Below, piece by piece: positions 21,568 through 59,100 of a DNA stretch of 64,000 bases; within the stretch, counting starts at the first letter, position 1, and each line of letters begins with the position of its first letter. The stretch is from the NCBI GenBank assembly GCA_000004985.1, contig GG738916.1; one strand, 5' to 3'. This stretch comes from Naegleria gruberi. Taxonomy: Eukaryota. A model generated the notes under the pieces. It worked only from the letters and a program-made list of their open reading frames with translations. It was not told where the DNA came from and searched no databases. The translations under genes were made by a program, and so were the position numbers.

Positions 21568-23320
21568 ATGCTTTCTTTTTTACGCAAGGCTTTGACACAC
21601 AACAATAACAATAATAATAACAATAAGAATAACAATACTGATAACAATAATAATAATAATAGTGATAACAATCATTTTATTCCTAATGATATTTTAATAA
21701 TAATATTTCAATTTCTTAATCAACAAGATTATATAAAAATATCATTTGTTTGTAGATATTGGAGATTTGTTGTTCAACAACCATTCCGAAAGGAATTTAC
21801 AAATTTTATTTTAAACTCTTCATATTCAATAGTTTATTGTACATTTATTATTAATGCATTTGAGTTTTTTAAATTCTTTTCTTCCATAACATTATAACAC
21901 TGTACCTGAATCAACATTTAAAACTCTGCTTTCTTCAATGAAATTACAAAGTTTATTTATTGATTCTTGTGTTGTTAAAAATAATATACCATTCAATTCT
22001 GTAAAACAATCTAATATAACTGAATTAGGATTAAATTGTAAAATGAAAAAGAAAGATTTACGTGCTTTATTTATTGTAATTCCAAATTTGAAACATTTAA
22101 GTTTAGGAATGGTAGTAACCGAATGTTTAATTAACACAGAATCATTTCTGAGTACACATTGTCATAAATTAGAAACACTCCATTTACAATTATTACCTGA
22201 AAATCAAAAAAAAATTGTAAAATTATTACATGGAATATTTAATCCATCAACAACAATATCCAATCTCATTGATATTAGAATATTTGTAACAGATAATAAT
22301 CCAACAAGTAATAGAAAATTAAATAATTTTACATTTAATTTTAATTCATTTCCAAATTTAAAATATTTATTTCTTGATATTACCTATATTTATACATTAG
22401 AATCAATTAGTAATGTATTAAATTCAAATAATATTTCAAAATTACAAGAATTTGGATTTGGAACTATTAGAAAAGCTATTGAAAAATTACAATTTAATTC
22501 GAGTGAAAATTTACAAAATTTAAAAAAATTATTTTTAAATAGAACAGAAATGATGACAAATATTGATAATCTTCCTTCATTAGAATTATTATATATAGAT
22601 GAATATGCAAAAAAACATTATTCCGCTACAAAATATTCAAAACCATGGAATTTAGCATCTAATGTGAAAATGCCATCTCTAAAATATTTACATTTAAATC
22701 TTTTTAATGAAACTCATTTACCTGATCGATTAAATGTGGAACCATTTAAAAATATTAAATATTTTTATTTTGAATCTGAATATAATATTGATTTATCAGA
22801 ATTGAGTAAATTAAATTTAGAAATATTAATTCTTAAAATTTCTGAAGAATATAATAAGAATATACTTCATCACATTTCTAAAATATCAACATTGAGAGAT
22901 TTAACATTTAGTAATCCTATTAGTGAAATTGATTTGAAATTACTTTGTAAATTACCAAATTTAGAATATCTGAATATTAGATTGGAATTTTATAGTGAAA
23001 CATCTTTTACTTTTAATTCACTAACTACACTCTCAATTCATTCAAAAAATTTGAAAGGATTAAATTTCTTTCAAATATCAAATTTACCAAAATTTAAAAC
23101 TTTACTAATTCGTAATCCTTATGATAATAACTATACATGGTGGTTGCAACCATTATTTCCAAATTTACAAATAATTAAAGCAAGTACTGACAGTTTTGGA
23201 ATATTTTTAACATCTCAATATAATGATGATATGAATTTTGGTGAGTATGAAGTTTCACAAAGAGCAGCAAATCATTTCCAAAATGAAAACGTATGGCTCT
23301 TTCCAAAAAAATTTATTTAA
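21568..23320 (+). pseudogene. F-box/LRR protein, paralog A of the 27373..29145 gene, disrupted by an 8-bp indel (frameshift) at about 21885-21890.
   Basis: About 95% nucleotide identity to 27373..29145 over gene plus about 150 bp of 3' flank. Paralog B reads cttccataacattatttttccataatactgtacc where A reads cttccataacattataacactgtacc. This splits A into ORFs 21568..21897 (F-box part, IPNDILIIIFQFLNQQDYIKISFVCRYWRFVV) and 21938..23320 (LRR part). Confidence 0.6.
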
Positions 23321-24031: not shown

Positions 24032-26504
24032 TTATTTTCTGTTTACTCTCAACCAATAATCGATAATAACTTTCAAGAAATTATTGCATGGTATATTTTC
24101 TTGACAAGATAATTGGATTTTTTGTAAATAATCAAGAGTTAAATTATTTGAGCAAAATATCTTGAAATACTCAACTAGCTCTCTACAATCATTATTATTT
24201 TGTGAAACTGAAGCTAAATTTAGTAATATAATAAATTCAGTATCATTAATGGAATATAATTTTTCAACAATCAAGATACAGACATGTTTAACAATCCATG
24301 TAATATCCAATTGTTGTGCAATGATTAAAATACCAACCAAATCATTCAATTTAAGGTAATTGAACTCATATCCATAACATAATTTACATATGATTTGTAA
24401 TATTGTATTAATTTTAGCTGAATTATTGAACAAATCAATAATCCAATGATCTGATACCATCATTTCAATGAATTCATACAAGTCAACCACATTATTTTCA
24501 TTATTTTTAAATAGAATATTTAAAACTGAACTATGAACGGATAGAATTGATTTATGTAATTGCAATAATTCATTTTTATCCTTATTAATAATTACATGAA
24601 TATCACTATTACTTTCATCATTATATAATAATTTTAATGATTCAGTTACATTTTTGGCAATATTTTCAAGATTATCAATTTTATAATTAATTTGTTTAAA
24701 TGGTTGTTTAACATTATTAATTTTATCTTGAATAATTTCGAATAATGGATCTGATTTCAATAAAGTTGCATTTTCTTTAATAAATGCAAGACACTTATTT
24801 GCCAACAATAGCAAAATACTATTTTTAGCTTGTTTTAAAATATTTAAAGAAAGATAATTATTAACTATTCGTAAAATCCTCATAATGTTATCTACATTCA
24901 TTCTATTTGAAATGTCATTAAATAACAATAATTTAATTTCATGCTTGATATCATTAATATCATTTAATATAAATAGACAAGTTACTAAATTTAATTCTAA
25001 TTCTCCAAATGAAATGAAATTAATAAATTTATCATAATTACTAAATAAATCATCTATATTTAAACAATTTAAATCAATAATTGCGTTTTTAATTAAATAA
25101 TATAAAACTTTTTGGTCATTCTCATTTAAATGTTCAATTATATCATTTTTAATTAAATTATAAAAATCATTTGAAATATTTTTTAATAAATTTAAATCTA
25201 AATAAAAATTAGAATTAATTTCATAATTGAACTTAAAATTATCAGTTACCATAATATCATTAATCTTGAGACTATTCTCATTATCTGTTTCATGAATAAA
25301 AATAGTAAAATTTTTACCACAACAAATTTGAATTTCATCACCTTCCTTAATAGTAAATGGTAATTCAATTAATTTTAGTTCATTGGCTGATTTATTAGCA
25401 TATCCTAATTCGCCAAATTCATTAGATCCAAATGAATAGAACTTTTGGTCTACTGTTTGCAAAACACTGTGGAAGGTACCACTTTCCATATTAATAATAT
25501 TATCCATATTTGCTTGTTTAGAATTATAGTCAATATATTTGCATTCATTATTATATAACGATAAAATTTGATATTCATTCAATATTAATTGATCATAATT
25601 TTTCTCAAATTTAAACTCATTATAATTATTATGTAATTTAATTACTTTTTTAGGATTGTAATAATCTGCCAAGCCATAATCAATTAAAGTATAATCTAGA
25701 ATTTACAATAGAAGAATCATTAAAAATAATGAAACTAGTTCTTCCATTACATTTAATATCCTTAATATCTTCAATATTCTTATTAACTAATTTGGTAACA
25801 TTCATAAAATTATTTAAGGTAAAATAATCTTCAACATGTAATTTACCATTTACAATACTTTCAATTACAAATGGTTGGAATGATTGTGAATATTCATTCA
25901 TTCCACAAACATACAATTCATTTTCAAATGTTGTGAAAAATGTCAAATGAAATGTTACAAATATTTTGTTTACTTTTAACTTTTCTAAATTTGTATTTTG
26001 TAATAAATTAACGGCTACATCATTTGATTTTTTAGCAATGATAGCCAATTGTCCATGTTCATTATTACCAATACCAAATATGGAATTTAATTTAGATAAA
26101 AATACAACATGTTCTTTACCAATCGCAAAATCAATAATTTTGTCACTAGTATTTAAATTATTAAATTTAATCAATGTAGGAATATTAGAAATATTATTAA
26201 TAAATGAACAATTTCCCATTTTGTAAACATATCCCTTACGCGTAAGAAATATGCACAATTGATCTTGACTTTTAAATTTAATAATCTTATCATTAATTAA
26301 ATAATTTTGTAAATAATCAATTTTATCAAAACATGTATCATTTAATTTTGTAACAGTAATAATATCACTTTGTTTCTTCCAGAATCCATCTCCGCATCCG
26401 TAAACAAATTGTGATTTAGAAGAATTAATACCGAAAGCAGTGTTATTAGGTTCTGTTTCGTCGTCCACTACTTGATCAACATGGTGAATGGTGAATTGAT
26501 TCAT
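24032..26504 (-). CDS. RCC1-repeat and BTB-like domain protein (RCBTB-like), present as two ORFs in different frames.
   Basis: ORF 26504..25680 (true ATG at 26504) and ORF 25672..24032 (track start is a TTG). RCC1-like blades (GIGNNEHGQLAI, YSFGSNEFGELGY). A BTB-like segment (LQLHKSILSVHSSVLNILFKNNENNVVDLYEFIEMM). Very Asn/Ile-rich. The junction at 25672..25682 needs a -1/+1 shift or a non-canonical short intron. Confidence 0.5.
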
Positions 26505-27372: not shown

Positions 27373-29145
27373 ATGCTTTCTTTTTTGCACAAGGCTTTGA
27401 CACACAACAATAACAAGAATAACAATAATAATACTAATAATACTAATAACAATACTGATAACAATAATAATAGTGATAACAATAATTTTATTCCCAATGA
27501 TATTTTAATAATAATATTTCAATTTCTCAATCAACAAGATTATATAAAAATATCATTTGTTTGTAGATATTGGAGATTTGTTGTTCAACAACCATTCCGA
27601 AAGGAATTTACAAATTATATTTTAAACTCTTCATATTCAATAGTTTATTGTACATTTATTATTAATGCATTTGAGTTTTTTAAATTCTTTTCTTCCATAA
27701 CATTATTTTTCCATAATACTGTACCTGAATCAACATTTAAAGCTCTACTTTCTTCAATGAAATTACAAAGTTTATTTATTGATTCTTGTGTTGCTAAAAA
27801 TAATATACCATTCAATTCTATAAAACAATCTAATATAACTGAATTAGGATTAAATTGTAAAATGAAAAAGAAAGATTTACGTGCTTTATTTATTGCACTT
27901 CCAAATTTGAAACATTTAAGTTTAGGAACGGTAGTAACAGAATGTTTAATTAGCACGGAATTATTTCTGAGTACACATTGTCATAAATTAGAAACACTCC
28001 ATTTACAATTATTACCTGAAAATCAAAAAAAAATTGTAAAATTATTAAATGGAATATTTAATCCATCAACAACAACAATATCCAATCTCATTGATATTAG
28101 AATATTTGTAAAAGAATATTATACAACAAGTAATAGAAAATTACATAATTTTACATTTAATTTTAATTCATTTCCAAATTTAAAATATTTATTTCTTGAT
28201 ATTACCTATATTTATACATTAGAATCAATTAGCAATGTATTAAATTCAAATAATATTTCAAAATTACAAGAATTTGGATTTGGAACTATTAGAAAAGCTA
28301 TTGAAAAATTACAATTTAATTCGAGTGAAAATTTACAAAATTTAAAAAAATTATTTTTAAATAGAACAGAAATGATGACAAATATTGATAATCTTCCTTC
28401 ATTAGAATTATTATATATAGATGAATATGCAAAAAAACATTATTCCGCTACAAAATATTCAAAACCATGGAATTTAGCATCTAATGTGAAAATGCCATCT
28501 CTAAAATATTTACATTTAAATCTTTTTAATGAAACTCATTTACCTGATCGATTAAATGTGGAATCATTTAAAAATATTAAATATTTTTATTTTGAATCAG
28601 AATATAATATTGATTTATCAGAATTGAGTAAATTAAATTTAGAAATATTAATTCTTAACATTTCTTTAAAATATAATAAGAATATATTTCATCACATTTC
28701 TAAAATATCAACATTGAGAGATTTAACATTTAGTAATCCTATTAGTGAAATTGATTTGAAATTACTTTGTAAATTACCAAATTTAGAATATCTTTATATT
28801 ACATTGGAATTTTATAGTGAAACATTTTTTACTTTTAATTCACTAACTACACTTTCAATTCATTCAGATAATTTGAAAGAATTAAATTTCTTTCAAATAT
28901 CAAATTTACCAAAATTGAAAACTTTACTAATTCGTAATCCTTTTGATAATAACCATACATGGTGGTTGCAACAATTGTTTCCAAATTTACAAATAATTAA
29001 TGCAAGTACTAACAGTATAGGAATATTTTCAACATCATCTCAATATAATGATGGTATGAATTTTGGTGAGTATGAAGTTTCACAAAGAGCAGCAAATTAT
29101 TTACAAAATGAATATGTATGGCTCTTTCCAAAAAAATTTATTTAA
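27373..29145 (+). CDS. F-box/LRR-repeat protein (intact paralog B).
   Basis: 590-aa uninterrupted ORF. Poly-Asn N-terminus, F-box (IPNDILIIIFQFLNQQDYIKISFVCRYWRFVV), then LRRs (LPNLKHLSLGTVVTECL…LPNLEYLYITLEF…). Confidence 0.75.
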   Translation: MLSFLHKALTHNNNKNNNNNTNNTNNNTDNNNNSDNNNFIPNDILIIIFQFLNQQDYIKISFVCRYWRFVVQQPFRKEFTNYILNSSYSIVYCTFIINAFEFFKFFSSITLFFHNTVPESTFKALLSSMKLQSLFIDSCVAKNNIPFNSIKQSNITELGLNCKMKKKDLRALFIALPNLKHLSLGTVVTECLISTELFLSTHCHKLETLHLQLLPENQKKIVKLLNGIFNPSTTTISNLIDIRIFVKEYYTTSNRKLHNFTFNFNSFPNLKYLFLDITYIYTLESISNVLNSNNISKLQEFGFGTIRKAIEKLQFNSSENLQNLKKLFLNRTEMMTNIDNLPSLELLYIDEYAKKHYSATKYSKPWNLASNVKMPSLKYLHLNLFNETHLPDRLNVESFKNIKYFYFESEYNIDLSELSKLNLEILILNISLKYNKNIFHHISKISTLRDLTFSNPISEIDLKLLCKLPNLEYLYITLEFYSETFFTFNSLTTLSIHSDNLKELNFFQISNLPKLKTLLIRNPFDNNHTWWLQQLFPNLQIINASTNSIGIFSTSSQYNDGMNFGEYEVSQRAANYLQNEYVWLFPKKFI

Positions 29146-29282: not shown

Positions 29283-30829
29283 ATGTCAAGATTAACTTTT
29301 CCGTTACTTCTTGCTACATTGATAATCGCTTTCGTTTTGGTGTCATCAGCATCATTATCGGATCGGGTTAATGCCTTGACTCCACTCATAAAAACATCAA
29401 AATTATTCTCCATCAAACAACAGAATAATAACAAGCAATTATTTATTACTGCTACAATTTATCCTAATTTTAAAATTGTTCATGGAGTGAAGGATTTAAA
29501 ATTTGGTTTGGCTACTATTGAATATAATGATCAGTTACATGCACAAGGATTTGATACATTGGTTTTAGAGACGAGACAATCTACAAGTTTGGTGGAAGAC
29601 TTTGCTATTGCTCAGGGGGCTGGATATTTGGAAGGCTATTTGACAATGCAGAGAATTTACAATCATTTTGTGAATATTAATAGTGTATCGTGGTGGAATG
29701 CTAAGGAGAATAGAACTTTGGGAATGTCAAGTAATATTCGTCAATTTTTCAAAGATCAAAANACATGGATTTTACAACAAGTGAGCCAACACATGAATGG
29801 AACAACAGAAGAGGATTTATATTGGCNNNNNNNNNNNNNNNNNNNNNNNNNNNNNNNNNNNNNNNNNNNNNNNNNNACTGATATTATTTCAGTCATACCG
29901 TTGGGTGGGTATTTAGTGCCTTGACAAGAATGATGAAGACATACACTCTCAATTTTGCAAATCCACTCACAAAGTCTCGCACAGTGACATTTTCGAGTTA
30001 TCCTGGATCATTAGGCAGTAATGATGACTATTATCAAACTGATGGTGGTCTTGTTGTTATCGAGACAACCATTGGCATTTTGAATAATACTCTCTACGAT
30101 AATACTCATCCTCAATCATTGTTGAGTTGGTTTAGAGTTGTCTTGGCCAATAGAATGGCTACAAGTGGCAGAGAATGGTTTGAAGTTTTTAGTATTAATA
30201 ATGGAGGAACCTATAATAATGAGTGGATGATTCTCGATGTGAAAAAGTTTATTCCTGGTCAAGCTCAATTGACAAAGGATTTATTCTGGGTAATTGAACA
30301 AATACCTGGAACAGTGGTGGGATCAGATCAAACAAATCTTCTCTCCACTCGCGGATACTTTGCATCTTATAATGTTCCTTTCTATCCTTCCATTTATGAA
30401 AAAACTGGATATGCAGAATATGTGAAGAAATTTCCAGAGACTTATCATTATATGAGTTATGATAAGTGTGCCAGATCTGAAATATTCAGAAGAGATCAAC
30501 ATTTAGTCAAAGATCTGCCATCCATGCAACGAATTATGCAATATGATAATTATCATGATGAATTTTCATTCGGAAATCCTGACTGGGTAATCTCAGCAAG
30601 AGACGATTTAGCTCCAAATGTTCCAAATGGACAAAAGAGTTGTGGAGGTGGATATGACTGTAAAATATCATCTATTTCTAAATGGAATTTTGTATTTTTC
30701 AGAAGTGGACCAGCTCACCAATTTACACCTGTTTTCAAGTTTGAGAATCAATGTGGACCTCAATACTCACATGTTGGATTGCCTTTGGAGTGGAACTTCC
30801 CTTGGATTCAATTGGATAGCAGAGTTTAA
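29283..30829 (+). CDS. Phospholipase B-like protein (PLBD/LAMA family), interrupted by assembly gaps.
   Basis: Signal peptide MSRLTFPLLLATLIIAFVLVSSAS. PLB-like motifs ATIEYNDQLHAQGFDTLVLETRQST…AQGAGYLEGYLTMQRIYNHF. Second track ORF 29921..30829 (…WFRVVLANRMATSGREWFEVFSINNGGTYNNEWMILD…) continues the same protein. The frame break coincides with N at 29762 and the 50-N gap 29827..29876. Confidence 0.75.
29827..29876. other. Assembly gap (50 N) inside the PLB-like gene; single N also at 29762.
   Basis: Run of n. Confidence 1.
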
Positions 30830-31082: not shown

Positions 31083-31322
31083 ATGCAACCTCAACAAAGC
31101 ACCACTGGCAGTACAATGCAAAATATTAAGGAGAAAGTCAAACATCCATTCACTCATGACACTGACACCAACATTACCTATCCAACCAGAGAACAAAAGA
31201 AATTAGCAGAATCTGGCACTACAGTTCCTCAATCCACCGTTGGAAGTGGTGGAATGTTAAATCAACCAACAACCACTCAATCCAATATTGGTAGAGAAGA
31301 ATACTTGGAAAAGAAATTGTAA
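31083..31322 (+). CDS. Possible small hydrophilic protein (79 aa).
   Basis: ATG in an A-rich context (caaaATGcaacct). Ser/Thr/Gln-rich, charged C-terminus. No homology recognised. Confidence 0.25.
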   Translation: MQPQQSTTGSTMQNIKEKVKHPFTHDTDTNITYPTREQKKLAESGTTVPQSTVGSGGMLNQPTTTQSNIGREEYLEKKL

Positions 31323-31382: not shown

Positions 31383-32504
31383 ATGGCGCAAAATATCTTT
31401 GAAGTTTTGCCCAACGATTTGATCGGAGAAGTTCTCTCTCATATCAGCCATGTTGAATTACTTGTTACCTTCTCTCAAGTTTGTAAATATTGGCAGAGAA
31501 TTTGTTATGAATTAATTTGGAATTATTATGAAGAATCATTTACACATATTACGAATAATCCGAAACAAGTATTTGTTGATTTGGATCAATTTTTACATTC
31601 AAAAGAAGGAAAGAAATTTATTAGATATTTACTACGTAAACAGGTTTATGAATTTGCTTGTAAATTGGCTCAGAGTTCAACACTTTCCGATAAATCATGT
31701 AATGTGAAAGAAAAGTGGGTCGATGTGGAATTGAGTATATTGAAGGGATGTTTTAAAAGATTCTCTGATTTGGCAGAGCAACCAACGATTCCAATTCTAC
31801 AACCAAAAGTTTACAAAGATCCACCACCAACATCAGGATTGTTCAGTAGTGCTTTATCATTTATTGGATCAATGTTTTCAAAGAATTCATCAAGTAGTTC
31901 CAAAGCTACACCAATTAGTGTTGAGCCAAAACCAGAATATGATTTTCTAACAAAGGTACTTTTGGATGGCGACTATTCAAGTGGAAAGACTTCATTGCTT
32001 AATTGTGCAATGAATGAAACGCCAGTGGATCCATCAAATAATCATCATATCACAACGATTGGAATGGATTTTGCCATTAAGAATTTCCATTTTGGAGATA
32101 CCACTAAAGTCAAGCTGGTAAGTAACATTTCAAACTGACTTTGCAAACTCTAACAGCAATTGTGGGATCAATGTGGACCAGAACGTTTTCGTCAAATAAC
32201 TCTTCCATTCTATAGACATGCATCGGTTATTCTCTTACTGGTCGATCCTTCATCAACTCATGTTCTTCGATCAATGAATGAAAAAGTGGAAGTAATCAAA
32301 AATAATGCTACAAAACCAGAAGTTATTCTAATCACAACAAAGAAAGATAAGAAAGATGAAGTGAGATTAATTTCAAATGAGCAAGCTGACAAATTAGCCT
32401 ATGACAATTTTGGAACTTTACATTTGGATATTACCAATACTCAATTGGAAGAACCCAAAAATATTATTTGGTATTGTGCTTTACTCAAGTATTTACTTTC
32501 TTAA
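31383..32504 (+). CDS. F-box domain + Rab-like small GTPase domain protein with a degenerate catalytic motif. 2 exons, about 360 aa.
   Basis: Exons 31383..32117 and 32157..32504, intron 32118..32156 (GTAAGT…TAACAG, 39 nt). F-box-like LIGEVLSHISHVELLVTFSQVCKYWQRI. GTPase motifs: G1 GDYSSGKTSLL, switch-I TIGMDF, KVKL|QLWDQCGPERF spanning the splice (G3 DTAGQ replaced by DQCGP, so the catalytic Gln is Pro), and G4 TKKD instead of NKxD. Confidence 0.65.
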
Positions 32505-32737: not shown

Positions 32738-34468
32738 ATGAAAAAACTATGTGCCAAGAGATGGGATCACAAATGTCCAATCATTTTCCATAACACTCTT
32801 TCCGAGCCCATTCAAATGATCTGGATTGATTATGAGGGAAATGAACAACCGTTTACAGTTTTAAATTCTGGCGGGAAATGTTGTCAGCAAGCCGGTGCTA
32901 CTCATCCTTTCATAATGAGAAGAATGAATGATGAGAAGAGGAAGGTTGTATCGATTTTTGTTCCGACAGAAGAGACTGTTGATTATTTTGAGGTTGTTCC
33001 TGGAATGTTTATGTATGATGAGGAGAGGGATGGGAAAATGGTTGATGAAGATGATGAAGAAATTGTGGTGGGTGATCAAGTGGAGGAGATAGAGGAAGAA
33101 ATAATTGAGGACCAATCAAAACACGTAACAATTTGCAAGATGACAAAAGCTCGTGAGGAGGATTGGAAATTAATTAGGTCAAGATTTGATGGACATGAAC
33201 TTGTGGATATTAGCATTAGAAATGATACATCTAGGAAATATAATGTATTTAGGGTAGACGAGGAAGGAAATCAAACTTCTCACGGATATTCAGCCCCAAT
33301 CTCAACTTTCTGGGCTACATTTGCATATCCAGGAAACGTATTTTTATTGAAGAACGAATGTGGTTCAGTTGAGTTTGTCTTGAAAGTTTCAGATAAGTCC
33401 ACCGTGTATATTATTGAATCTAACTATCTGGAGTCAACAGCATGTATTGATGATGATAAACAGTCTAGTTGCAGAAATATCCTATTGAAGAATGAAGATA
33501 AGAGAATCGGTCCTCGTAAAATGGGGTTCAATTCTCCTGAAATTGTTCAAGATATTGTTAATGAGCTAAAAAGGAGGAATTCGAAATTTATAGATGAAGA
33601 CTTTCCTCCAAGGAGTGATTGTGTTAGAGCTCAAAATTTATTCAAAAGACCTGCTATTTTCAAGAATATTTCTGTCATGGATCCAATTCAAGGAAAATTA
33701 GAAGATTGCTTTTTAATATCTAGTATTAGTGGGGCTGCATTAAGAACTAGATTATTGAGGAAAGTATTCACTCATTGTGAGGCCATAGATCCAAAGCTAG
33801 GTCTTTATGCTTTGACATTCTATTTAGAGCCAAATAATGAGAAAATGACTCTTCTATTGGATGATTATTTGCCTGCTGAAAATGGACATTTAAAGTTTGC
33901 TCATTCTCAAGATAGAGGAGAGTTGTGGATTTCTCTTATTGAAAAAGGCATTGCAAAATTGGTTGGAGATTATGACAAGATTAACCCTCAAACGAATTCT
34001 CATCTATTCTATCCCTCTAATATTCTTTCATTGCTCCTTGGTGGGAGATCAAAACAATTAGATTGGTTCTCTGGTCAAAGTACAACAGCAACTGATATGA
34101 TGAAGAAGGGAACTTTCTGGCCTCTCATTGAAAAACTAATGGACAGCTCATTAAGCGTTCCGGTTTGTGGAACCAAACCAGGTAAAGAAGGATCTGATTC
34201 GATCAATTCTAATGGCCTTGTAAATGCTCACGGTTATTCGCTTCTTAGCTATAGAAAATTCCCAGAACATGATTTGAAATTGGTCAACCTGAGAAATACA
34301 TGGGGAAGAATTGAGTACAATGGACCATGGTCAGATAATAGTCCAGAGTGGGATCAATATCCAGATGTTAAAAAAGCACTTGAATATCGAAATGCAGATG
34401 ACGGATGTTTCTATATGACCTATGAAGCATTTGAGAATTGTTTCGGAATTGTTTGGTGGAACGATTAA
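32738..34468 (+). CDS. Calpain-like cysteine protease (CysPc catalytic domain).
   Basis: 576 aa. Catalytic Cys context QGKLEDCFLISSISGAA. His context NAHGYSLLS. Asn/Trp context NLRNTWGRIEYNGPWSDNSPEW. Confidence 0.8.
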   Translation: MKKLCAKRWDHKCPIIFHNTLSEPIQMIWIDYEGNEQPFTVLNSGGKCCQQAGATHPFIMRRMNDEKRKVVSIFVPTEETVDYFEVVPGMFMYDEERDGKMVDEDDEEIVVGDQVEEIEEEIIEDQSKHVTICKMTKAREEDWKLIRSRFDGHELVDISIRNDTSRKYNVFRVDEEGNQTSHGYSAPISTFWATFAYPGNVFLLKNECGSVEFVLKVSDKSTVYIIESNYLESTACIDDDKQSSCRNILLKNEDKRIGPRKMGFNSPEIVQDIVNELKRRNSKFIDEDFPPRSDCVRAQNLFKRPAIFKNISVMDPIQGKLEDCFLISSISGAALRTRLLRKVFTHCEAIDPKLGLYALTFYLEPNNEKMTLLLDDYLPAENGHLKFAHSQDRGELWISLIEKGIAKLVGDYDKINPQTNSHLFYPSNILSLLLGGRSKQLDWFSGQSTTATDMMKKGTFWPLIEKLMDSSLSVPVCGTKPGKEGSDSINSNGLVNAHGYSLLSYRKFPEHDLKLVNLRNTWGRIEYNGPWSDNSPEWDQYPDVKKALEYRNADDGCFYMTYEAFENCFGIVWWND

Positions 34469-34734
34469 TCATTTCTAATTAATTTAATAGCTCCAACTGA
34501 ATACTAAAGCTCAAGCTTTGCGTGTTGGTTGCATTTATTTTCCATCACAATGCTGAAACAACTTACCAAATGTGACTTACAAGACATTGTAATGTTGTCT
34601 TTGAATTGTAGCTTGTAATGGAAAAATGGCGTTCAAAAAAAAAATAGCATGTTGAATAGCTTGCTGTCCATCATTCTGAGAAAATATCAATCCATCAATA
34701 ATAGCACAACTTGATAATAATTAATAGTATTAAC

Positions 34735-36459
34735 ATGATGAATTATTGTAAAATATTACAATTGAGTCAAGATATATTATGCAATGTAATTATTCCCTAC
34801 TGTAATTCACATACTTTGATTGCTTTTGCTGGGGTTTGTTCCGAGTGGAGAAGAATTGTCAAAGAAAGTGATACTAGAGGAATCAAGTGTGTAAATGTGA
34901 AGCATAAATCAGCAAGATACAGATTTGAATCATTAAATGATGAGGAGGAAATGAGTGGATTAATGAAAGGTGACCTCTTGCAAATATTCTCACAAATGGA
35001 AATAAGAACTTTTCCAGAATTTGAGGAAACTATTTTTCTTAACAGATCTTTTTTTAAAAAGTTATTCAATTCAAAAAAACTGGAATTATTGACATTACAA
35101 AATACTAATATTATTACAATTATTATTCCTGCTAAAGATATTTCACCAATTATAACTCTGAAATTAATAAGTGTTCAAATGGAAGTTGAAAATTTAAGAA
35201 CTATATGCACTAATTTACTAAATTTAACAGATCTAACATTAATTGATAATGGGCTTGATTATAAGGCAACACTTGTATTGACCAAATCAAAGTTGACTCG
35301 TCTAACACATCTTACACTTCGTAATAGAATTGGAGATGAAGGTGTTAATCAATTATTGACTCAACCAGGAAATATTAGAACTTTGAAACATATTAACTTT
35401 GTTGCAAGACCTCCAGAATCATCTCAAAAAGACAATATTTCATACATAGCACCAATTAATAGTTCAATGTTACCAAATCTTGAATCTTTTTCAATAGATT
35501 TGGAGATGTCTACAAAATCAATTATGAATGTGTTGAATAGTGGTAATTCATGGAGAGAATTGACTTTTTTTCACTCACATTTAAATAGTGAATGTATGAA
35601 ACAAATTGGAAAAATTCATACACTCCAAAAACTTTGTTTTCAATCAAAATTGGAAGTAGATTTACCTTACAGATGTTTATTACCTCTTCAAAATAATCTC
35701 ACTCATCTAGAAATTGGTCCTGTTGACAATAATACATTCTCCGAATTGAGTGAGGGTAACTTTGTTAATTTGAAATATTTATGCATTCTAAATACAAAAC
35801 AAGGAAATGAAATAGATGAATATGTAATACGAAAATTCTGTGAAAAAGTTCAAAATCTAACCTATTTAGAGTTAAGAAGAGTAGTAATGAAAAGTGGATG
35901 TATGAATCACATATCCCAACTTTCAAAAATTACTGATTTACGAATTATTCAAACACATATTGATAGTGAAGAAATGAAATATTTATCAAGAATGAGTAAC
36001 TTGACAACATTATATTTAGGAAGTGAAATTACATTTGATGGAATTTCATATTTATGCAACGGAAATTTACTAAATTTACACACTTTAAAGTTTACAAGAG
36101 TTCCTTCAGGCAAGTTCAAATATGACTCAAAGTTTACATCAAGTTTAGCTCATTCAAATTTTCCAAAATTAAGATATTTGAGTTTTTATTATGAATTTGA
36201 TATTTATGCAACTGATATGTTACATTCTGGTCCATCTCTGAAAAATTTGATACATTTAGAACTTTATTGGGTAGATTTAACAATTACACCTATTTTAGTA
36301 CCTATAGTCAATAATCTGGCGCCTAAATATCTGACTGGAATTGGAGGCTTTCCAAAGCTTAAAGCTTTCTCACCAGAAGCCATACCACAATTAAGACAAC
36401 CAACAAAAATCAACTATATGACTGGACATACCGATATACGAATTGATGAATTTATTTAA
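34735..36459 (+). CDS. F-box/LRR-repeat protein (member of the AGVCSxWRRIV subfamily), copy 1 of an inverted pair.
   Basis: True ATG at 34735 (track start 34711 is TTG). F-box LSQDILCNVIIPYCNSHTLIAFAGVCSEWRRIV, then LRRs. About 98% amino-acid identity with the product of 52527..54365 on the opposite strand. Confidence 0.75.
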   Translation: MMNYCKILQLSQDILCNVIIPYCNSHTLIAFAGVCSEWRRIVKESDTRGIKCVNVKHKSARYRFESLNDEEEMSGLMKGDLLQIFSQMEIRTFPEFEETIFLNRSFFKKLFNSKKLELLTLQNTNIITIIIPAKDISPIITLKLISVQMEVENLRTICTNLLNLTDLTLIDNGLDYKATLVLTKSKLTRLTHLTLRNRIGDEGVNQLLTQPGNIRTLKHINFVARPPESSQKDNISYIAPINSSMLPNLESFSIDLEMSTKSIMNVLNSGNSWRELTFFHSHLNSECMKQIGKIHTLQKLCFQSKLEVDLPYRCLLPLQNNLTHLEIGPVDNNTFSELSEGNFVNLKYLCILNTKQGNEIDEYVIRKFCEKVQNLTYLELRRVVMKSGCMNHISQLSKITDLRIIQTHIDSEEMKYLSRMSNLTTLYLGSEITFDGISYLCNGNLLNLHTLKFTRVPSGKFKYDSKFTSSLAHSNFPKLRYLSFYYEFDIYATDMLHSGPSLKNLIHLELYWVDLTITPILVPIVNNLAPKYLTGIGGFPKLKAFSPEAIPQLRQPTKINYMTGHTDIRIDEFI

Positions 36460-52526: not shown

Positions 52527-54365
52527 TTAAATAAATTCATCAATTCGTATATCTGTATATGCAATCAAATAGTTGATTTTTGTTGGTTGTCTTAATTGTG
52601 ATATGACTTTTGCTTTAAGGGCTGCAAAACCTCCAATTCCAGTCAGATATTTAGGTGCCAGATTATTGACTATAGGTACTAAAATAGGTGTAATTGTTAA
52701 ATCTACCCAATAAAGTTCTAAATGTATCAAATTTTTCAGAGATGGTCCAGAATGTAACATATCAGTTGCATAAATATCAAATTCATAATAAAAACTCAAG
52801 TATCTTAATTTGGGAAAATTTGAATGAGCTAAACTTGATGTAAACTTTGAGTCATATTTGAACTTGCCTGAAGGAACTCTTGTAAACTTTAAAGTTTGTA
52901 AATTTAGTAAATTTCCGTTGCATAAATATGAAATTCCATCAAATGTAATTTCACTTCCTAAATATAATGTTGTCAAGTTACTCATTCTTGATAAATATTT
53001 CATTTCTTCACTATCAATATGTGTTTGAATAATTCGTAAATCAGTAATTTTTGAAAGTTGGGATATGTGATGCATACATCCACTTTTCATTACTACTTTT
53101 CTTAACTCTAAATAGGTTAGATTTTGGACTTTTTCACAGAATTTTCGTATTACATATTCATCTATTTCAGTTCCTTGTTTTGTATTTAGAATGCATAAAT
53201 ATTTCAAATTAAGAAAGTTACCCTCACTCAATTCAGAGAATGTATTATTGTCAACAGGACCAATTTCTAGGTGAGTGAGATTATTTTGAAGAGGTAATAA
53301 ACATCTGTAAGGTAAATCTACTTCCAATTTTGATTGAAAACAAAGTTTTTGGAGTGTATGAATTTTTCCAATTTGTTTCACACATTCACTATTTAAATGT
53401 GAGTGAAGAAAAGTCAATTCTCTCCATGAATTACCACTATTCAACACATTCATAATTGATTTTGTCGACATCTCCAAATCTATTGAAAAAGATTCAAGAT
53501 TTGGTAAAATTGAACTATTAATTGGTGCTATGTATGAAATATTGTCTTTTTGAGATGATTCTGGAGGTCTTGCAACAAAGTTAATATGTTTCAAAGTTCT
53601 AATATTTCCTGGTTGAGTCAATATTTGATTAACACCTTCATCTCCAATTCGATTACGAAGTGTAAGATGTGTTAGACGAGTCAACTTTGATTTGGTCAAT
53701 ACAAGTGTTGCCTTATAATCAAGTCCATTATCAATTAATGTTAGATCTGTTAAATTTAGTAAATTAGTGCATATAGTTCTTAAATTTTCAACTTCCATTT
53801 GAACACTTATTAATTTCAGTGTTGTAATTGGTGAAATATCTTTAGCAGGAATAACAATTGTAATAATATTAGTATTTTGTAATGTCAATAATTCCAGTTT
53901 TTTTGAATTGAATAACTTTTTAAAAAAAGATCTGTTAAGAAAAATAGTTTCCTCAAATTCTGGAAAAGTTCTTATTTCCATTTGTGAGAATATTTGCAAG
54001 AGGTCACCTTTCATCAATCCACTCATTTCCTCCTCATCATTTAATGATTCAAATCTGTATCTTGCTGATTTATGCTTCACATTTACACACTTGATTTCTC
54101 TAGTATCACTTTCTTTTACAATTCTTCTCCACTCGGAACAAACTCCAGCAAAAGCAATCAAAGTATGCCAATTAAAATAGGGAATAATAACATTGCAAAA
54201 TATATCTTGACTCAATTGTAATATTTTGGAATAAATCATCATGTTAATACTATTATCTGTTGTTGTTGTGCTATTACTATCGGTTGTTGTGTTATTATTG
54301 ATGGATTGATAGTGGGTACTTTCTCTAGAAAAACAACAGAATGATGGACAACAAGTTGTCAACAT
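52527..54365 (-). CDS. F-box/LRR-repeat protein, inverted near-identical paralog of 34735..36459, with a longer N-terminal extension.
   Basis: 612-aa ORF with ATG at 54365. About 98% identical to copy 1 across the F-box and all LRRs. The N-terminal 40-aa extension (MLTTCCPSFCCFSRESTHYQSINNNTTTDSNSTTTTDNSIN) is degraded by indels in copy 1. Confidence 0.75.
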   Translation of the reverse strand: MLTTCCPSFCCFSRESTHYQSINNNTTTDSNSTTTTDNSINMMIYSKILQLSQDIFCNVIIPYFNWHTLIAFAGVCSEWRRIVKESDTREIKCVNVKHKSARYRFESLNDEEEMSGLMKGDLLQIFSQMEIRTFPEFEETIFLNRSFFKKLFNSKKLELLTLQNTNIITIVIPAKDISPITTLKLISVQMEVENLRTICTNLLNLTDLTLIDNGLDYKATLVLTKSKLTRLTHLTLRNRIGDEGVNQILTQPGNIRTLKHINFVARPPESSQKDNISYIAPINSSILPNLESFSIDLEMSTKSIMNVLNSGNSWRELTFLHSHLNSECVKQIGKIHTLQKLCFQSKLEVDLPYRCLLPLQNNLTHLEIGPVDNNTFSELSEGNFLNLKYLCILNTKQGTEIDEYVIRKFCEKVQNLTYLELRKVVMKSGCMHHISQLSKITDLRIIQTHIDSEEMKYLSRMSNLTTLYLGSEITFDGISYLCNGNLLNLQTLKFTRVPSGKFKYDSKFTSSLAHSNFPKLRYLSFYYEFDIYATDMLHSGPSLKNLIHLELYWVDLTITPILVPIVNNLAPKYLTGIGGFAALKAKVISQLRQPTKINYLIAYTDIRIDEFI

Positions 54366-54507: not shown

Positions 54508-55790
54508 ATGAAGAGAGCTCGAGATGAAATGAGAAGCGCAAACAACATTGTCCTGTTATTATTCTTGTTGATGATGATGACAATCTTTTCCACAACAACA
54601 ACAGCAGCAACTACAAGTTCCACCACTAAATTATCATATATTTCAACAATTGCAGGAAGTGGATTAATATCAGCAGCAGGTATGGAAGGAGATGGTGGTT
54701 TGGCTATCAATGCCCAATTAAATTCTCCCTCCTATTCAATAAGTATTTCCCCTCTCAGCAATAATAATTACACTGAAACACTTATTGTCGATACACAAAA
54801 TGGAAGAATTAGAAAAATATTTATGAATGGTACAATTTTCACATTACCAATTAATATGCAAACAGGTAACAAGTTTAAACCAACCATGGCTGTTTTATTT
54901 AGAAATGAATTATACATGACAGATGTGTTAAATCATAGAATTCTTTCTGTTTGCCTTTCACGTTATTTGGTGACCATTGTTTCTGGAAAGCAAAACTGTA
55001 ATGAACATTCTGATTGTGATGGTTTTAGTGGTGATGGTGGTTTAGCTAGTAGAGCAAAATTAAATTCACCTAATGGTCTCTCTATTTCTCAGAATGGTGA
55101 AATTTACATTGCTGACACATTGAACCATAGAATCAGAAAGATTAATAGTTATGGAGTGATTTCAACTATTGCTGGAACTGGTAGAGCATCCTTTGGTGGT
55201 GATGGTGGATTTGCTGTTCTTTCACAATTAAACTCTCCAAATGGTGTTCATATTTCACAGAATGGTGAAATTTACATTGCTGATACATTGAACCATAGAA
55301 TTAGAAAGATTAATAGTTATGGTGTGATTTCAACAGTGGCAGGAACTGGTAGAGCATCATTTGGTGGTGATGGTGGTTTGGCTATAAACTCTCAATTGAA
55401 TTCACCATATGGCGTCCATGTTTCACAGAATGGTGAAATTTACATTGCTGACACATTGAATCATCGAATTAGAAAGATATTTGTGAATGGAACTATTACA
55501 ACCATTGCTGGAAGTAGTAGCGATGGATCATTTGGTGGTGATGGTGGTTTGTCAATTGCGAGTCGACTTAATTCTCCTAAAGGTGTTTTTGTTTCTCCAA
55601 ATAATAATGAAATATTAATTGCAGACACATCAAATAACAGGATTAGAAAGATCATTGAATGTGGTACAACTCTTCAATTTACACAAGATTTCAATGGAGC
55701 TATGAGTTGTGTGAATACATGCAATGGAACACGATCCAATTCAAAATCAGTTTGTAATGGCAATGGTATCTGTAATGGTTTTAATGAATG
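54508..55790 (+). CDS. Secreted NHL-repeat beta-propeller protein, 5' part of an NHL/EGF-array gene, truncated by the assembly gap at 55791.
   Basis: Signal peptide MKRARDEMRSANNIVLLLFLLMMMTIFS. Six NHL repeats of the form LNSPNGxxISQNGEIYIADTLNHRIRKI, then the first EGF-like Cys pattern (CVNTCNGTRSNSKSVCNGNGICNGFNEC) before the gap. Nucleotide sequence is about 98% identical to 56163..57363. Confidence 0.65.
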
Positions 55791-55841
55791 TNNNNNNNNN
55801 NNNNNNNNNNNNNNNNNNNNNNNNNNNNNNNNNNNNNNNNN
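55791..55841. other. Assembly gap (51 N) truncating the first NHL/EGF gene copy.
   Basis: Run of n. Confidence 1.
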
Positions 55842-56160
55842 CACCGAATAGTCACTGAATGTTTACCATATAATAACCGAATGGTTACTGAATATTTATT
55901 GAATAGTTACCCACCAATTTCATTCCTTTACCCAACAATCAACCGACTACCAACCAACTAACACTGAACTAAAACGGTCAGGCGATTATGGGCTGATATT
56001 CGATTAATTTCTGGAAAATCGTTCAGTTATTTTCGGAAACAAGTTGGGGGAAATTAGGGTTGTAGTCGGTGGTAGTAGGGTTGTGGATGGGGTTTAGACG
56101 GAACATAGCCAACTAAAAACCAACTATAACACTGTCTATTACCCAAGTACTCCACTCTTA
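55842..56160. repeat. Compositionally atypical GC-richer block with internal direct/inverted sub-repeats, bounded by an assembly gap; possible repetitive-element fragment.
   Basis: Motifs agtcactgaatg / ggttactgaatat / cgttcagttatt recur. caaccgactaccaaccaactaac is partially mirrored by ggttgtagtcggtggtagtagggttgtgg. The block replaces the upstream region seen in front of the first NHL gene copy. Confidence 0.3.
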
Positions 56161-56179: not shown

Positions 56180-59100
56180 ATGAGAAGCGCAAACAACATT
56201 GTCCTGTTATTATTCTTGTTGTTGATGATGACACTCTTTTCCACAACAACAACAATAGGATACTTTTCGTATGTGAAAGCAACAACTGCAAGTTCCACCA
56301 CTAAATTATCATATATTTCAACAATTGCAGGAAGTGGATTAATGGCAGCATCAGGTATGGAAGGAGATGGTGGTTTGGCTATCAATGCCCAATTAAATGC
56401 TCCCTCCTATTCAATAAGTATTTCCCCTCTCAACAATAATAATTACACTGAAACACTTATTATAGATACACAAAATGGAAGAATTAGAAAAATATTTATG
56501 AATGGTACAATTTTCACATTACCAATTAATATGCAAACAGGTAACAAGTTTAAACCAACCGTGGCTGTTTTATTTAGAAATGAATTATACATGACAGATG
56601 TGTTAAATCATAGAATTCTTTCTGTTTCTCTGTCAAGTTATTTGGTGACCATTGTTTCTGGAAAGCAAAACTGTAATGGACATTCTGATTGTGATGGTTT
56701 TAGTGGTGATGGTGGTTTAGCTAGTAGAGCAAAATTAAATTCACCAAATGGTCTCTCTATTTCTCAGAATGGTGAAATTTACATTGCTGACACATTGAAC
56801 CATAGAATCAGAAAGATTAATAGTTATGGAGTGATTTCAACTATTGCTGGAACTGGTAGAGCATCCTTTGGTGGTGATGGTGGATTTGCTGTTCTTTCAC
56901 AATTAAACTCTCCAAATGGTGTTCATATTTCACAGAATGGTGAAATTTACATTGCTGATACATTGAACCATAGAATTAGAAAGATTAATAGTTATGGTGT
57001 GATTTCAACAGTGGCAGGAACTGGTAGAGCATCCTTTGGTGGTGATGGTGGTTTGGCTATAAACTCTCAATTGAATTCACCATATGGCGTCCATGTTTCA
57101 CAGAATGGTGAAATTTACATTGCTGACACATTGAATCATCGAATTAGAAAGATATTTGTGAATGGAACTATTACAACCATTGCTGGAAGTAGTAGCGATG
57201 GATCATTTGGTGGTGATGGTGGTTTGTCAATTGCGAGTCGACTTAATTCTCCTAAAGGTGTTTTTGTTTCTCCAAATAATAATGAAATATTAATTGCAGA
57301 CACATCAAATAACAGGATTAGAAAGATCATTGAATGTGGTACAACTCTTCAATTACACAAGATNNNNNNNNNNNNNNNNNNNNNNNNNNNNNNNNNNNNN
57401 NNNNNNNNNNNNNNNNNNNNNNNNNNNNNNNNNNNNNNNNNNNNNNNNNNNNNNNNNNNNNNNNNNNNNNNNNNNNNNNNNNNNNNNNNNNNNNNNNNNN
57501 NNNNNNNNNNNNNNNNNNNNNNNNNNNNNNNNNNNNNNNNNNNNNNNNNNNNNNNNNNNNNNNNNNNNNNNNNNNNNNNNNNNNNNNNNNNNNNNNNNNN
57601 NNNNNNNNNNNNNNNNNNNNNNNNNNNNNNNNNNNNNNNNNNNNNNNNNNNNNNNNNNNNNNNNNNNNNNNNNNNNNNNNNNNNNNNNNNNNNNNNNNNN
57701 NNNNNNNNNNNNNNNNNNNNNNNNNNNNNNNNNNNNNNNNNNNNNNNNNNNNNNNNNNNNNNNNNNNNNNNNNNNNNNNNNNNNNNNNNNNNNNNNNNNN
57801 NNNNNNNNNNNNNNNNNNNNNNNNNNNNNNNNNNNNNNNNNNNNNNNNNNNNNNNNNNNNNNNNNNNNNNNNNNNNNNNNNNNNNNNNNNNNNNNNNNNN
57901 NNNNNNNNNNNNNNNNNNNNNNNNNNNNNNNNNNNNNNNNNNNNNNNNNNNNNNNNNNNNNNNNNNNNNNNNNNNNNNNNNNNNNNNNNNNNNNNNNNNN
58001 NNNNNNNNNNNNNNNNNNNNNNNNNNNNNNNNNNNNNNNNNNNNNNNNNNNNNNNNNNNNNNNNNNNNNNNNNNNNNNNNNNNNNNNNNNNNNNNNNNNN
58101 NNNNNNNNNNNNNNNNNNNNNNNNNNNNNNNNNNNNNNNNNNNNNNNNNNNNNNNNNNNNNNNNNNNNNNNNNNNNNNNNNNNNNNNNNNNNNNNNNNNN
58201 NNNNNNNNNNNNNNNNNNNNNNNNNNNNNNNNNNNNNNNNNNNNNNNNNNNNNNNNNNNNNNNNNNNNNNNNNNNNNNNNNNNNNNNNNNNNNNNNNNNN
58301 NNNNNNNNNNNNNNNNNNNNNNNNNNNNNNNNNNNNNNNNNNNNNNNNNNNNNNNNNNNNNNNNNNNNNNNNNNNNNNNGCCAATTCTGTGAAATTCCAA
58401 TTTGTAATGGAACAATGGCAACTGATGCTTTGGTTTGTAATGGCAATGGTACATGTATTCAACCAGATATATGTAATTGTACTTCAGAATGGGGTGGACA
58501 GTATTGTGAAATTCCATATTGTAATGGAATATTGGCAAATAATATATCTGCTTGTGAAGGACATGGTAACTGTATTAGCCCAAATATTTGTGAGTGTAAT
58601 TCGACATATGGTGGAGAATTTTGTGAATCTCCAAAATGTAACTTTACACTGGCAACTGATCCTTATGTATGTACTGGAAATGGAGAATGTATTCAACCAG
58701 ATGAATGTATTTGTAATACCAATTGGACTGGTCAATTCTGTCAAACTCCACTTTGTAATGGTACGAGTGCAACTGATGCATTGGTTTGTAATGGAAACGG
58801 TCAATGTGTGAGTCCAAATATTTGTGAATGTAATTCAAGTTGGTCAGGAGAACTTTGTGAAATTCCAATTTGTAATGGAACTTTGGCCATTGATGAATTT
58901 GTGTGTAGTGGTAATGGTGCATGTATTGGTCCAGATGTTTGTGAGTGCAATTCTACATGGGGTGGACAATATTGTGAATCTCCAAAATGTAACTCTACAC
59001 TGGCAACTGATCCTTATGTATGCAATGGTAATGGAGAATGTTTTCAACCCAATGAATGTATTTGTAATTCAAATTGGACAGGTCCATTTTGTGAAATTCC

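Follow-up and report, generated by a model that had tools for sequence, protein, structure and literature searches.

A two-exon gene on the forward strand (31383..32117 joined to 32157..32504) of the window, the 64,000-nucleotide stretch of Naegleria gruberi DNA that was analysed, encodes a protein of 360 residues. Exon 1 encodes an F-box, then a linker that is first helical and further on disordered and rich in Ser, and finally the N-terminal half of a Rab-like G domain, with G1 and switch I (Table 1). The product is, by string comparison, 100% identical to a corrected gene model, XP_002670359.1*, which Herman et al. (2021, BMC Biol 19:142, PMC8296547) list in their Table S8.

Table 1. Features of the F-box–Rab-like gene; positions are those of the window, residues those of the 360-residue product.
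Feature	Residues	Position	Strand	Remarks
Exon 1	1-245	31383..32117	+	735 nt, 245 codons; uninterrupted ORF from the ATG at 31383
F-box	6-47	31398..31523	+	FEVLPNDLIGEVLSHISHVELLVTFSQVCKYWQRICYELIWN; Pfam F-box-like and F-box above gathering scores
Family-specific helical linker	48-135	31524..31787	+	clade-conserved motifs GxKF.KYLLRK.VYE.A and W...EL.ILKGYF..F.D
Hydrophobic Phe/Ser/Gly-rich uncharged island	151-166	31833..31880	+	SGLFSSALSFIGSMFS; conserved, within the disordered linker
Rab-like G domain	187-360	31941..32501	+	split by the intron; ends at helix alpha5 (…WYCALLKYLLS)
G1/P-loop GDYSSGKT	196-203	31968..31991	+	intact GxxxxGK[ST]; aligns with Rab8A GDSGVGKT
Switch-I Thr225 in TTIGMDF	225	32055..32057	+	equivalent to Rab8A Thr40; TIGMDF aligns with TIGIDF
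Intron (putative spliceosomal, phase 0)		32118..32156	+	39 nt, GTAAGT...CTAACAG; lies between KVKL and QLWD
Exon 2	246-360	32157..32504	+	closes with the TAA stop; G3/switch II, G4, G5, C-terminal helix
G3 DQCGP	249-253	32166..32180	+	WDQCGPERF against Rab8A WDTAGQERF; Asp and Gly of DxxG kept
G4 TKKD	306-309	32337..32348	+	aligns with Rab8A NKCD
G5 position ITNT	337-340	32430..32441	+	stands where Rab has TSAK

The intron holds two in-frame stops (VSNISN*LCKL*Q), so that if it were retained the protein would end after switch I. Among the GT..AG pairs around it three preserve the frame without stops, and just 32118..32156 gives the paralogue-like KxKLQLWDQCGPERF; this splice produces KVKLQLWDQCGPERF, the counterparts in the paralogues being KIKLQLWDQCGPERF and RVKLQLWDQCGPERY. 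Herman et al. (2021) used the same 32117/32157 junction in their manually curated model, and P0028, a 114-residue homologue from a metagenome, starts at the exon-2 junction point (MWDQSGPERY). The intron that a preliminary description of the DNA, made from the letters alone, had placed within KVKLQLWD is thus borne out by a paralogue-matching splice and by the published junction. The same description had set its reading of G3 against alternative splicing that would restore a canonical DTAGQ. This was ruled out, as no open GT..AG option and no frame near the intron encodes D[TS]AGQ. A fusion artefact joining two neighbouring genes was also ruled out, because a single exon contains the F-box, the linker and G1–G2 and because N. 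gruberi, N. fowleri and N. lovaniensis all have proteins of this architecture.

The N-terminal F-box is recognized by two Pfam families, F-box-like [PF12937; residues 7-47, E = 5.1e-7, 29.8 bits, cut-off 24.3] and F-box [PF00646; E = 6.3e-7, 29.5 bits, cut-off 20.5]. The PDB entries matched by a profile of the family N-terminus (150 residues) are F-box proteins, all of them aligned through profile positions 6-53, with FBXL17 at 2.3e-5 followed by FBH1, FBXO6, Dia2, FBXO44, FBXW7, KDM2B and SKP2. The helical linker (residues 48-135) gave no convincing match in Pfam or the PDB, the sole PDB hits being two unrelated proteins with E-values of 0.65 and 0.83. The second half of the protein matches Pfam Ras over residues 191-337 (E = 1.9e-18, 67 bits, cut-off 21.6), and its closest PDB relatives are Rab8A, Sec4 and Rab1 (E about 5e-19 across residues 185-332). 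The F-box, Ras and Rab matches are far beyond chance, and the N-terminal F-box followed by a Rab-type G domain that had been proposed from the letters stands.

An AF2 structure was built on the paralogue P0001 (61% identical; it shares DQCGP, TKKD and ITNT), in whose alignment the window exons are rows, so the structural values given here are those of the paralogue. With a 23-sequence alignment the model reached a pLDDT of 78.8 and a pTM of 0.80, and with a 6-sequence alignment it was unusable (pLDDT 36.7). In the better model the F-box and the family-specific helices of the predicted helical linker form a helical N-terminal module (pLDDT 80-96). Residues 147-189 of P0001 are disordered, and the α/β G domain is complete. 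The hydrophobic island of the disordered linker, 14-16 residues long, falls in a low-confidence region of the P0001 model (pLDDT about 43). The island is on average 40% identical to its homologues, compared with 13-19% for the flanks. Its 14-residue core has between 0 and 3 charged residues per sequence among 17 homologues, and the hydrophobic moment is moderate.

Alignment with Rab8A confirmed GDYSSGKT as G1 and the Thr of TIGMDF as the switch-I Thr, as the preliminary description had them. It also placed Pro253 on Gln67 of Rab8A, in agreement with the earlier view that Pro has taken the place of the catalytic Gln in DQCGP. The losses of the pseudoGTPase type are this Gln to Pro change and, at G5, the change of SAK to TNT; G1, G2, the DxxG of G3 and G4 are retained. 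G5 was assigned by manual comparison with Rab8A in the family alignment, the columns of which are shifted at that point. The RabF motifs are defined as IGVDF, KLQIW, RFrsiT, YYRGA and LVYDIT. Judged by eye in the PDB alignment, three are kept (IGMDF, KLQLW and RFRQIT) and two are degenerate (FYRHA and LLVDPS). Residues of the Rab effector face are retained in the Rab8A alignment, namely the Phe of IGMDF, Trp248 and Phe263/Tyr264. No CC, CxC or CaaX motif is present at the C-terminus; since the protein ends with helix α5, it has neither a hypervariable tail nor prenylatable cysteines. The G5 change and the absent prenylation tail had both been missed in the preliminary description.

TKKD had been described earlier as a degenerate G4, a reading that did not hold. 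The G4 of Rac and Cdc42 is TKLD, and TKxD is the norm in the clade, with 13 of 19 homologues carrying it and two carrying NKxD. Judged by these sequences TKxD is no sign of degeneracy, because N. gruberi Rab20 combines TKSD with a canonical WDTAGQ (listed in the same Table S8).

The best matches among 5.8 billion proteins are Naegleria family members only: two from N. gruberi (61% and 55% identity), one from N. fowleri (37%) and one truncated N. gruberi model. When a family profile was run against 1.84 billion representative proteins, full-length matches spanning the F-box, the linker and the G domain came from about 15-20 clusters only. Those with a species name are all from N. gruberi, N. 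fowleri or N. lovaniensis and the others are metagenome proteins. The clade is restricted to Naegleria and metagenome sequences. The dictyostelid origin assumed in the preliminary description has to be replaced by Naegleria gruberi (Heterolobosea), given that the best homologues are all Naegleria and the product is the published N. gruberi model.

Motifs were tabulated for 20 family sequences, the window gene and 19 homologues. The P-loop GxxxxGK[ST] is kept in 16/19 homologues and a Thr or Ser at the switch-I position in 13/19. The catalytic Gln is missing in 18 of the 19 and is found at G3 in P0067 alone (DTGSQ); Pro is its commonest replacement (11/20 family sequences, counting the window gene). 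I/T-T/S-N-T at G5 and WYxxLLKYLL at the C-terminus rank with the best-conserved motifs of the clade. The P-loop or G3 is missing entirely from four members (P0066, P0046, P0032 and P0047), which still have the F-box and the C-terminal helix. Measured against the window protein, G1, G3, G4 and G5 have mean identities of 58-68% (51-68% when the C-terminal helix is counted) and the F-box one of 35%; for the linker the values are 13% in its variable part and 19% in its Ser-rich part. DQCGP, TKKD, ITNT and WYCALLKYLLS are common to N. fowleri and metagenome homologues of only 37-60% overall identity, which indicates that the substituted motifs are under purifying selection. Being conserved throughout the clade, the substitutions are clade features and not decay.

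The gene has a published record. Herman et al. (2021, PMC8296547) list XP_002670359.1* in Table S8 as manually corrected and as 'Rab' with the additional domain 'F-box', without a pseudogene flag and with no orthologue outside Heterolobosea. The entry is confined to the N. gruberi sheet and is not assigned as orthologue to any N. fowleri gene. They describe Naegleria-specific F-box–Rab-like clades among the 'divergent lineage-specific Rab' proteins of RabX type (Additional files 4 and 10), the subgroups of which follow birth-and-death dynamics and in one case carry a CaaX motif. No other additional domain is as frequent on Naegleria GTPases as the F-box, which occurs on Rab, Rho, Ran and Gα proteins, and 'GTPase-dependent ubiquitination' was proposed for such proteins, with 'no specific functional prediction' possible (PMC8296547). 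The window gene is a listed member of this F-box–Rab-like clade, identical in sequence and with the N-terminal F-box extension upstream of the divergent Rab-like domain. The gene, its intron, its architecture and the ubiquitination idea are therefore already known, the exact model, the architecture and the idea having been published in 2021. That paper contains no motif-level analysis of the clade, and our additions are modest: an argument at the level of motifs for impaired hydrolysis (near clade-wide loss of the Gln, retention of the P-loop and TKxD, and ITNT at G5) and the hydrophobic island in the linker.

In a family with birth-and-death dynamics the gene might be a functionless duplicate in decay, on its way to becoming a pseudogene and with its GTPase broken, and the lack of any assigned N. 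fowleri orthologue in Table S8 would suit such a fate. We regard this as very improbable: the frame of 360 codons is intact, the splice sites are canonical, Table S8 gives no pseudogene flag, and DQCGP, TKKD, ITNT and WYCALLKYLLS are shared with the 37-60%-identical homologues. The clade is one of rapidly duplicating, Naegleria-restricted F-box–Rab-like proteins.

Loss of the Gln in cis is no proof that hydrolysis is dead. TBC RabGAPs, which act through dual fingers, provide a Gln in trans, and Rap, which with RapGAP is the precedent for catalytic residues supplied by a GAP, reportedly hydrolyses GTP without a catalytic Gln (Scrima et al., 2008). The protein might accordingly be read as an ordinary cycling Rab-like switch, the catalytic residues being supplied in trans by a GAP, on which the F-box merely shortens the lifetime of the protein itself by self-ubiquitination or regulated turnover. 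The intact G1, G2, G3 DxxG and G4 agree with this, as does the Rap precedent, and self-turnover was argued likewise for TbFRP, a euglenozoan protein with fast processing and turnover (PMC3593210). We think it unlikely, however, because Rab cycling normally takes place on membranes and the window protein has no membrane anchor, and because the Gln is gone from nearly the whole clade. Some members even lack the P-loop or G3 and keep the F-box and the C-terminal helix. The clade-wide loss of the Gln together with these losses of P-loop and G3 argues that a switch cycle is not the conserved function.

The reading that we favour, to which we assign a probability of about one half, is that the protein is the substrate receptor of an SCF ligase with a Rab-like domain that would bind nucleotide and hydrolyse it poorly. 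A domain that binds nucleotide and hydrolyses it poorly, as the preliminary description had suggested, would fit the clade-conserved loss of the Gln and the retained P-loop, switch-I Thr and Lys and Asp of G4. It is a reasonable proposal in that selection acts on G1, G2, DxxG and G4 but not on the Gln. The SCF idea of the same description matches the 'GTPase-dependent ubiquitination' suggested by Herman et al. (2021). By its motif the F-box would dock on Skp1-Cul1-Rbx1. The soluble Rab-like domain would probably hold nucleotide with little intrinsic turnover and so be stuck in one conformation. It could then serve as the substrate-recognition module, bringing partners that resemble Rab effectors or Rab regulators to the ligase for ubiquitination. 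We base this role on the domain arrangement, the conserved effector face and the precedent set by Rab40 and its CRL5 ligase. Guanine binding could be weakened in the window protein, since G5 is changed (TNT for SAK), and nucleotide binding may be dispensable for the function of the family, as P0066, P0046, P0032 and P0047 do without the P-loop or G3.

F-box proteins can act with Skp1 without a cullin, an example being yeast Rcy1, which is linked to the Ypt31/32 Rabs. The window protein might likewise belong to a non-SCF Skp1–F-box complex in membrane traffic, with the Rab-like domain as the trafficking module. Its G domain is nearest to the exocytic Rabs Rab8, Sec4 and Rab1, and the linker has its conserved Ser/Gly/Phe hydrophobic island as a possible membrane-binding element. 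The missing prenyl tail speaks against such a role, and the island is short (14-16 residues) and of low confidence in the P0001 model; we hold it to be improbable.

A bolder form of the SCF proposal, put forward as speculation with little expectation that it is right, combines the island with the locked G domain. The proteins would be soluble 'Rab decoys' on an SCF ligase, in which a G domain locked in one nucleotide state by the Gln-to-Pro change, and still bearing the Rab effector-binding triad, captures Rab effectors, GAPs or GEFs for ubiquitination and the island acts as an anchor that senses lipid packing in place of the prenyl tail. If this were true, the family would represent a fast-diversifying means of degrading trafficking regulators, or pathogen effectors that mimic Rabs, at particular membranes.

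Fusions of a small GTPase with a cullin adaptor, such as Rab40-SOCS and RhoBTB, link switches of membrane identity or signalling directly to ubiquitination, and in Naegleria the F-box version of such a fusion has expanded to dozens of genes. Should the Rab-like domain be a recognition module locked by its nucleotide, as in the reading favoured here, the clade would provide a natural case of a GTPase fold recruited as the substrate receptor of an E3 ligase.

Rab40 retains a prenylated tail and the canonical catalytic Gln, whereas the window protein has no lipid anchor and a Pro for the Gln. Both join a Rab-family G domain to a cullin-RING adaptor motif. Rab40 carries a SOCS box and is a receptor of the Cullin5 ligase CRL5, its Rab domain recruiting the substrates (PMC8129794, PMC9070665, PMC10509765). 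In Rab40 the SOCS box lies C-terminal to the G domain and works with Elongin B/C and Cul5; in the window protein the adaptor is an N-terminal F-box of the Skp1-Cul1 type, no Pfam match to a SOCS box was obtained and the chain ends at helix α5. Rab40 and the Naegleria F-box–Rab proteins are independent inventions.

In another discoban lineage, an F-box likewise lies upstream of a Rab-related G domain in TbFRP, a euglenozoan FYVE–F-box–GTPase with a PI3P-binding FYVE domain at its N-terminus and a G domain nearest to Rab18/Ypt6 (PMC3593210). The window protein differs from it in being nearest to Rab8/Sec4/Rab1 and in lacking a FYVE domain (absent from Pfam results at E up to 1). The authors of the TbFRP study did not find an N. 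gruberi orthologue (PMC3593210). Orthology with TbFRP is unsupported by our data as well: in the profile search of the 1.84 billion representative proteins, the full-length matches are to Naegleria and metagenome proteins only.

RhoBTB, which is also reported in Naegleria (Herman et al., 2021, PMC8296547), and the Naegleria BTB–Arf/Ras fusions resemble the window protein in uniting an atypical small GTPase with a cullin adaptor domain. Their adaptor is BTB for Cul3 and not an F-box for Cul1, and their G domain is Rho, Arf or Ras; the window protein has no Pfam match to BTB. A Rab-like domain and an F-box in one polypeptide are further found in Legionella, where Rab-domain effectors with an F-box or U-box have been described (Gomez-Valero et al., bioRxiv 10.1101/350777), and these bacteria parasitize amoebae including Naegleria. 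The effectors differ in being secreted bacterial proteins of other architectures, and no Legionella protein is among the full-length profile matches in the 1.84 billion representative proteins.

A tblastn search of the 64,000-nt window with the window protein found no second Rab-like paralogue, which rules out a tandem cluster of the family there. Apart from the self match it returned weak F-box-like matches in unrelated F-box/LRR genes. The neighbours in the window are ordinary, unrelated nuclear genes, among them those for phospholipase B, a calpain (downstream), Arf, Paf1 and a CCT subunit; NHL/EGF-repeat proteins, an RCC1/BTB protein, an F-box/LRR gene and several LRR-only ORFs are encoded there as well.

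The F-box–Rab-like protein has, between its F-box/helical module and its G domain, a disordered and otherwise variable linker that surrounds a conserved hydrophobic island. Across the clade (the Naegleria F-box–Rab-like family) the island follows the pattern G-[LF]-F-x3-[LF]-x-[FY]-[LIVM]-[GAS]-S-[LFM]-F, with a mean identity of 40% compared with 13-19% for its flanks. Its hydrophobic moment is moderate and AF2 models it with low confidence. The island could be an ALPS-like membrane-binding helix replacing the absent prenyl tail, or it could be a docking peptide.

The Gln-to-Pro change in the G3 motif of the F-box–Rab-like protein is also seen in P0117, a metagenome Rab-like protein of 374 residues from outside the window, where G3 reads DTAGP. 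P0117 ends in a CaaX box (CSLS) and carries an unrelated N-terminal domain, so the proline substitution is not confined to the F-box clade. Two metagenome homologues bear on the intron. P0028 (114 residues) begins precisely at MWDQSGPERY, the same point as the exon 2 ORF of the window, which suggests that the intron site is common to a close relative. P0026 reads uninterrupted across the exon junction (…RVKAQLWDQCGPERF) and thus has no intron at that point.

Features of the window
Feature	Coordinates	Strand	Remarks
Hydrophobic island, Phe/Ser/Gly-rich (SGLFSSALSFIGSMFS)	31833..31880		aa 151-166 of F-box–Rab-like gene; nearly without charge
Small hydrophilic ORF, 79 aa (MQPQQSTTGSTMQNIKEKVKHPF…EEYLEKKL)	31083..31322	+	directly upstream of F-box–Rab-like gene
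Calpain-type cysteine protease	32738..34468	+	directly downstream of F-box–Rab-like gene; Peptidase_C2, E 1e-47
F-box+LRR gene (one) and several LRR-only ORFs	27373..29145 (+); also 34711..36459 (+), 52527..54365 (-), 4195..6612 (+), 21938..23320 (+)
ORF with weak RCC1-repeat matches and marginal BTB	24032..25672	-	BTB 21.8 bits, cut-off 20.5
Phospholipase B-like gene, two overlapping ORFs in differing frames	29283..29924 and 29921..30829	+	Pfam profile positions 2-94 and 192-486
NHL-repeat genes in tandem	54508..55851 and 56180..60301	+

Of the direct neighbours, the upstream ORF has no match in Pfam. The N-terminal 64 residues of the downstream calpain score 20.3 bits against the VHL beta domain, just under the cut-off of 21; a VHL beta domain and a calpain in one protein would, if real, be an uncommon pairing.

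Genes of the cullin-adaptor type look common in this stretch. The F-box of the single F-box+LRR gene is recognized with an E-value of 8e-8, and some of the F-box+LRR/LRR ORFs give weak F-box-like tblastn matches to the F-box of the Rab-like gene, of which none of these ORFs is a paralogue. The ORF with RCC1-repeat and BTB matches may be a further cullin-adaptor fusion; it sits in a region of low GC content (21-27% at 22-30 kb).

Elsewhere, the division of the phospholipase B-like gene between frames implies an intron or a frameshift between its two ORFs. The second NHL-repeat gene runs on into a long teneurin/Delta-like EGF repeat array, which accounts for the numerous ORFs that overlap one another at 57.3-58.8 kb, on the plus and the minus strand alike.
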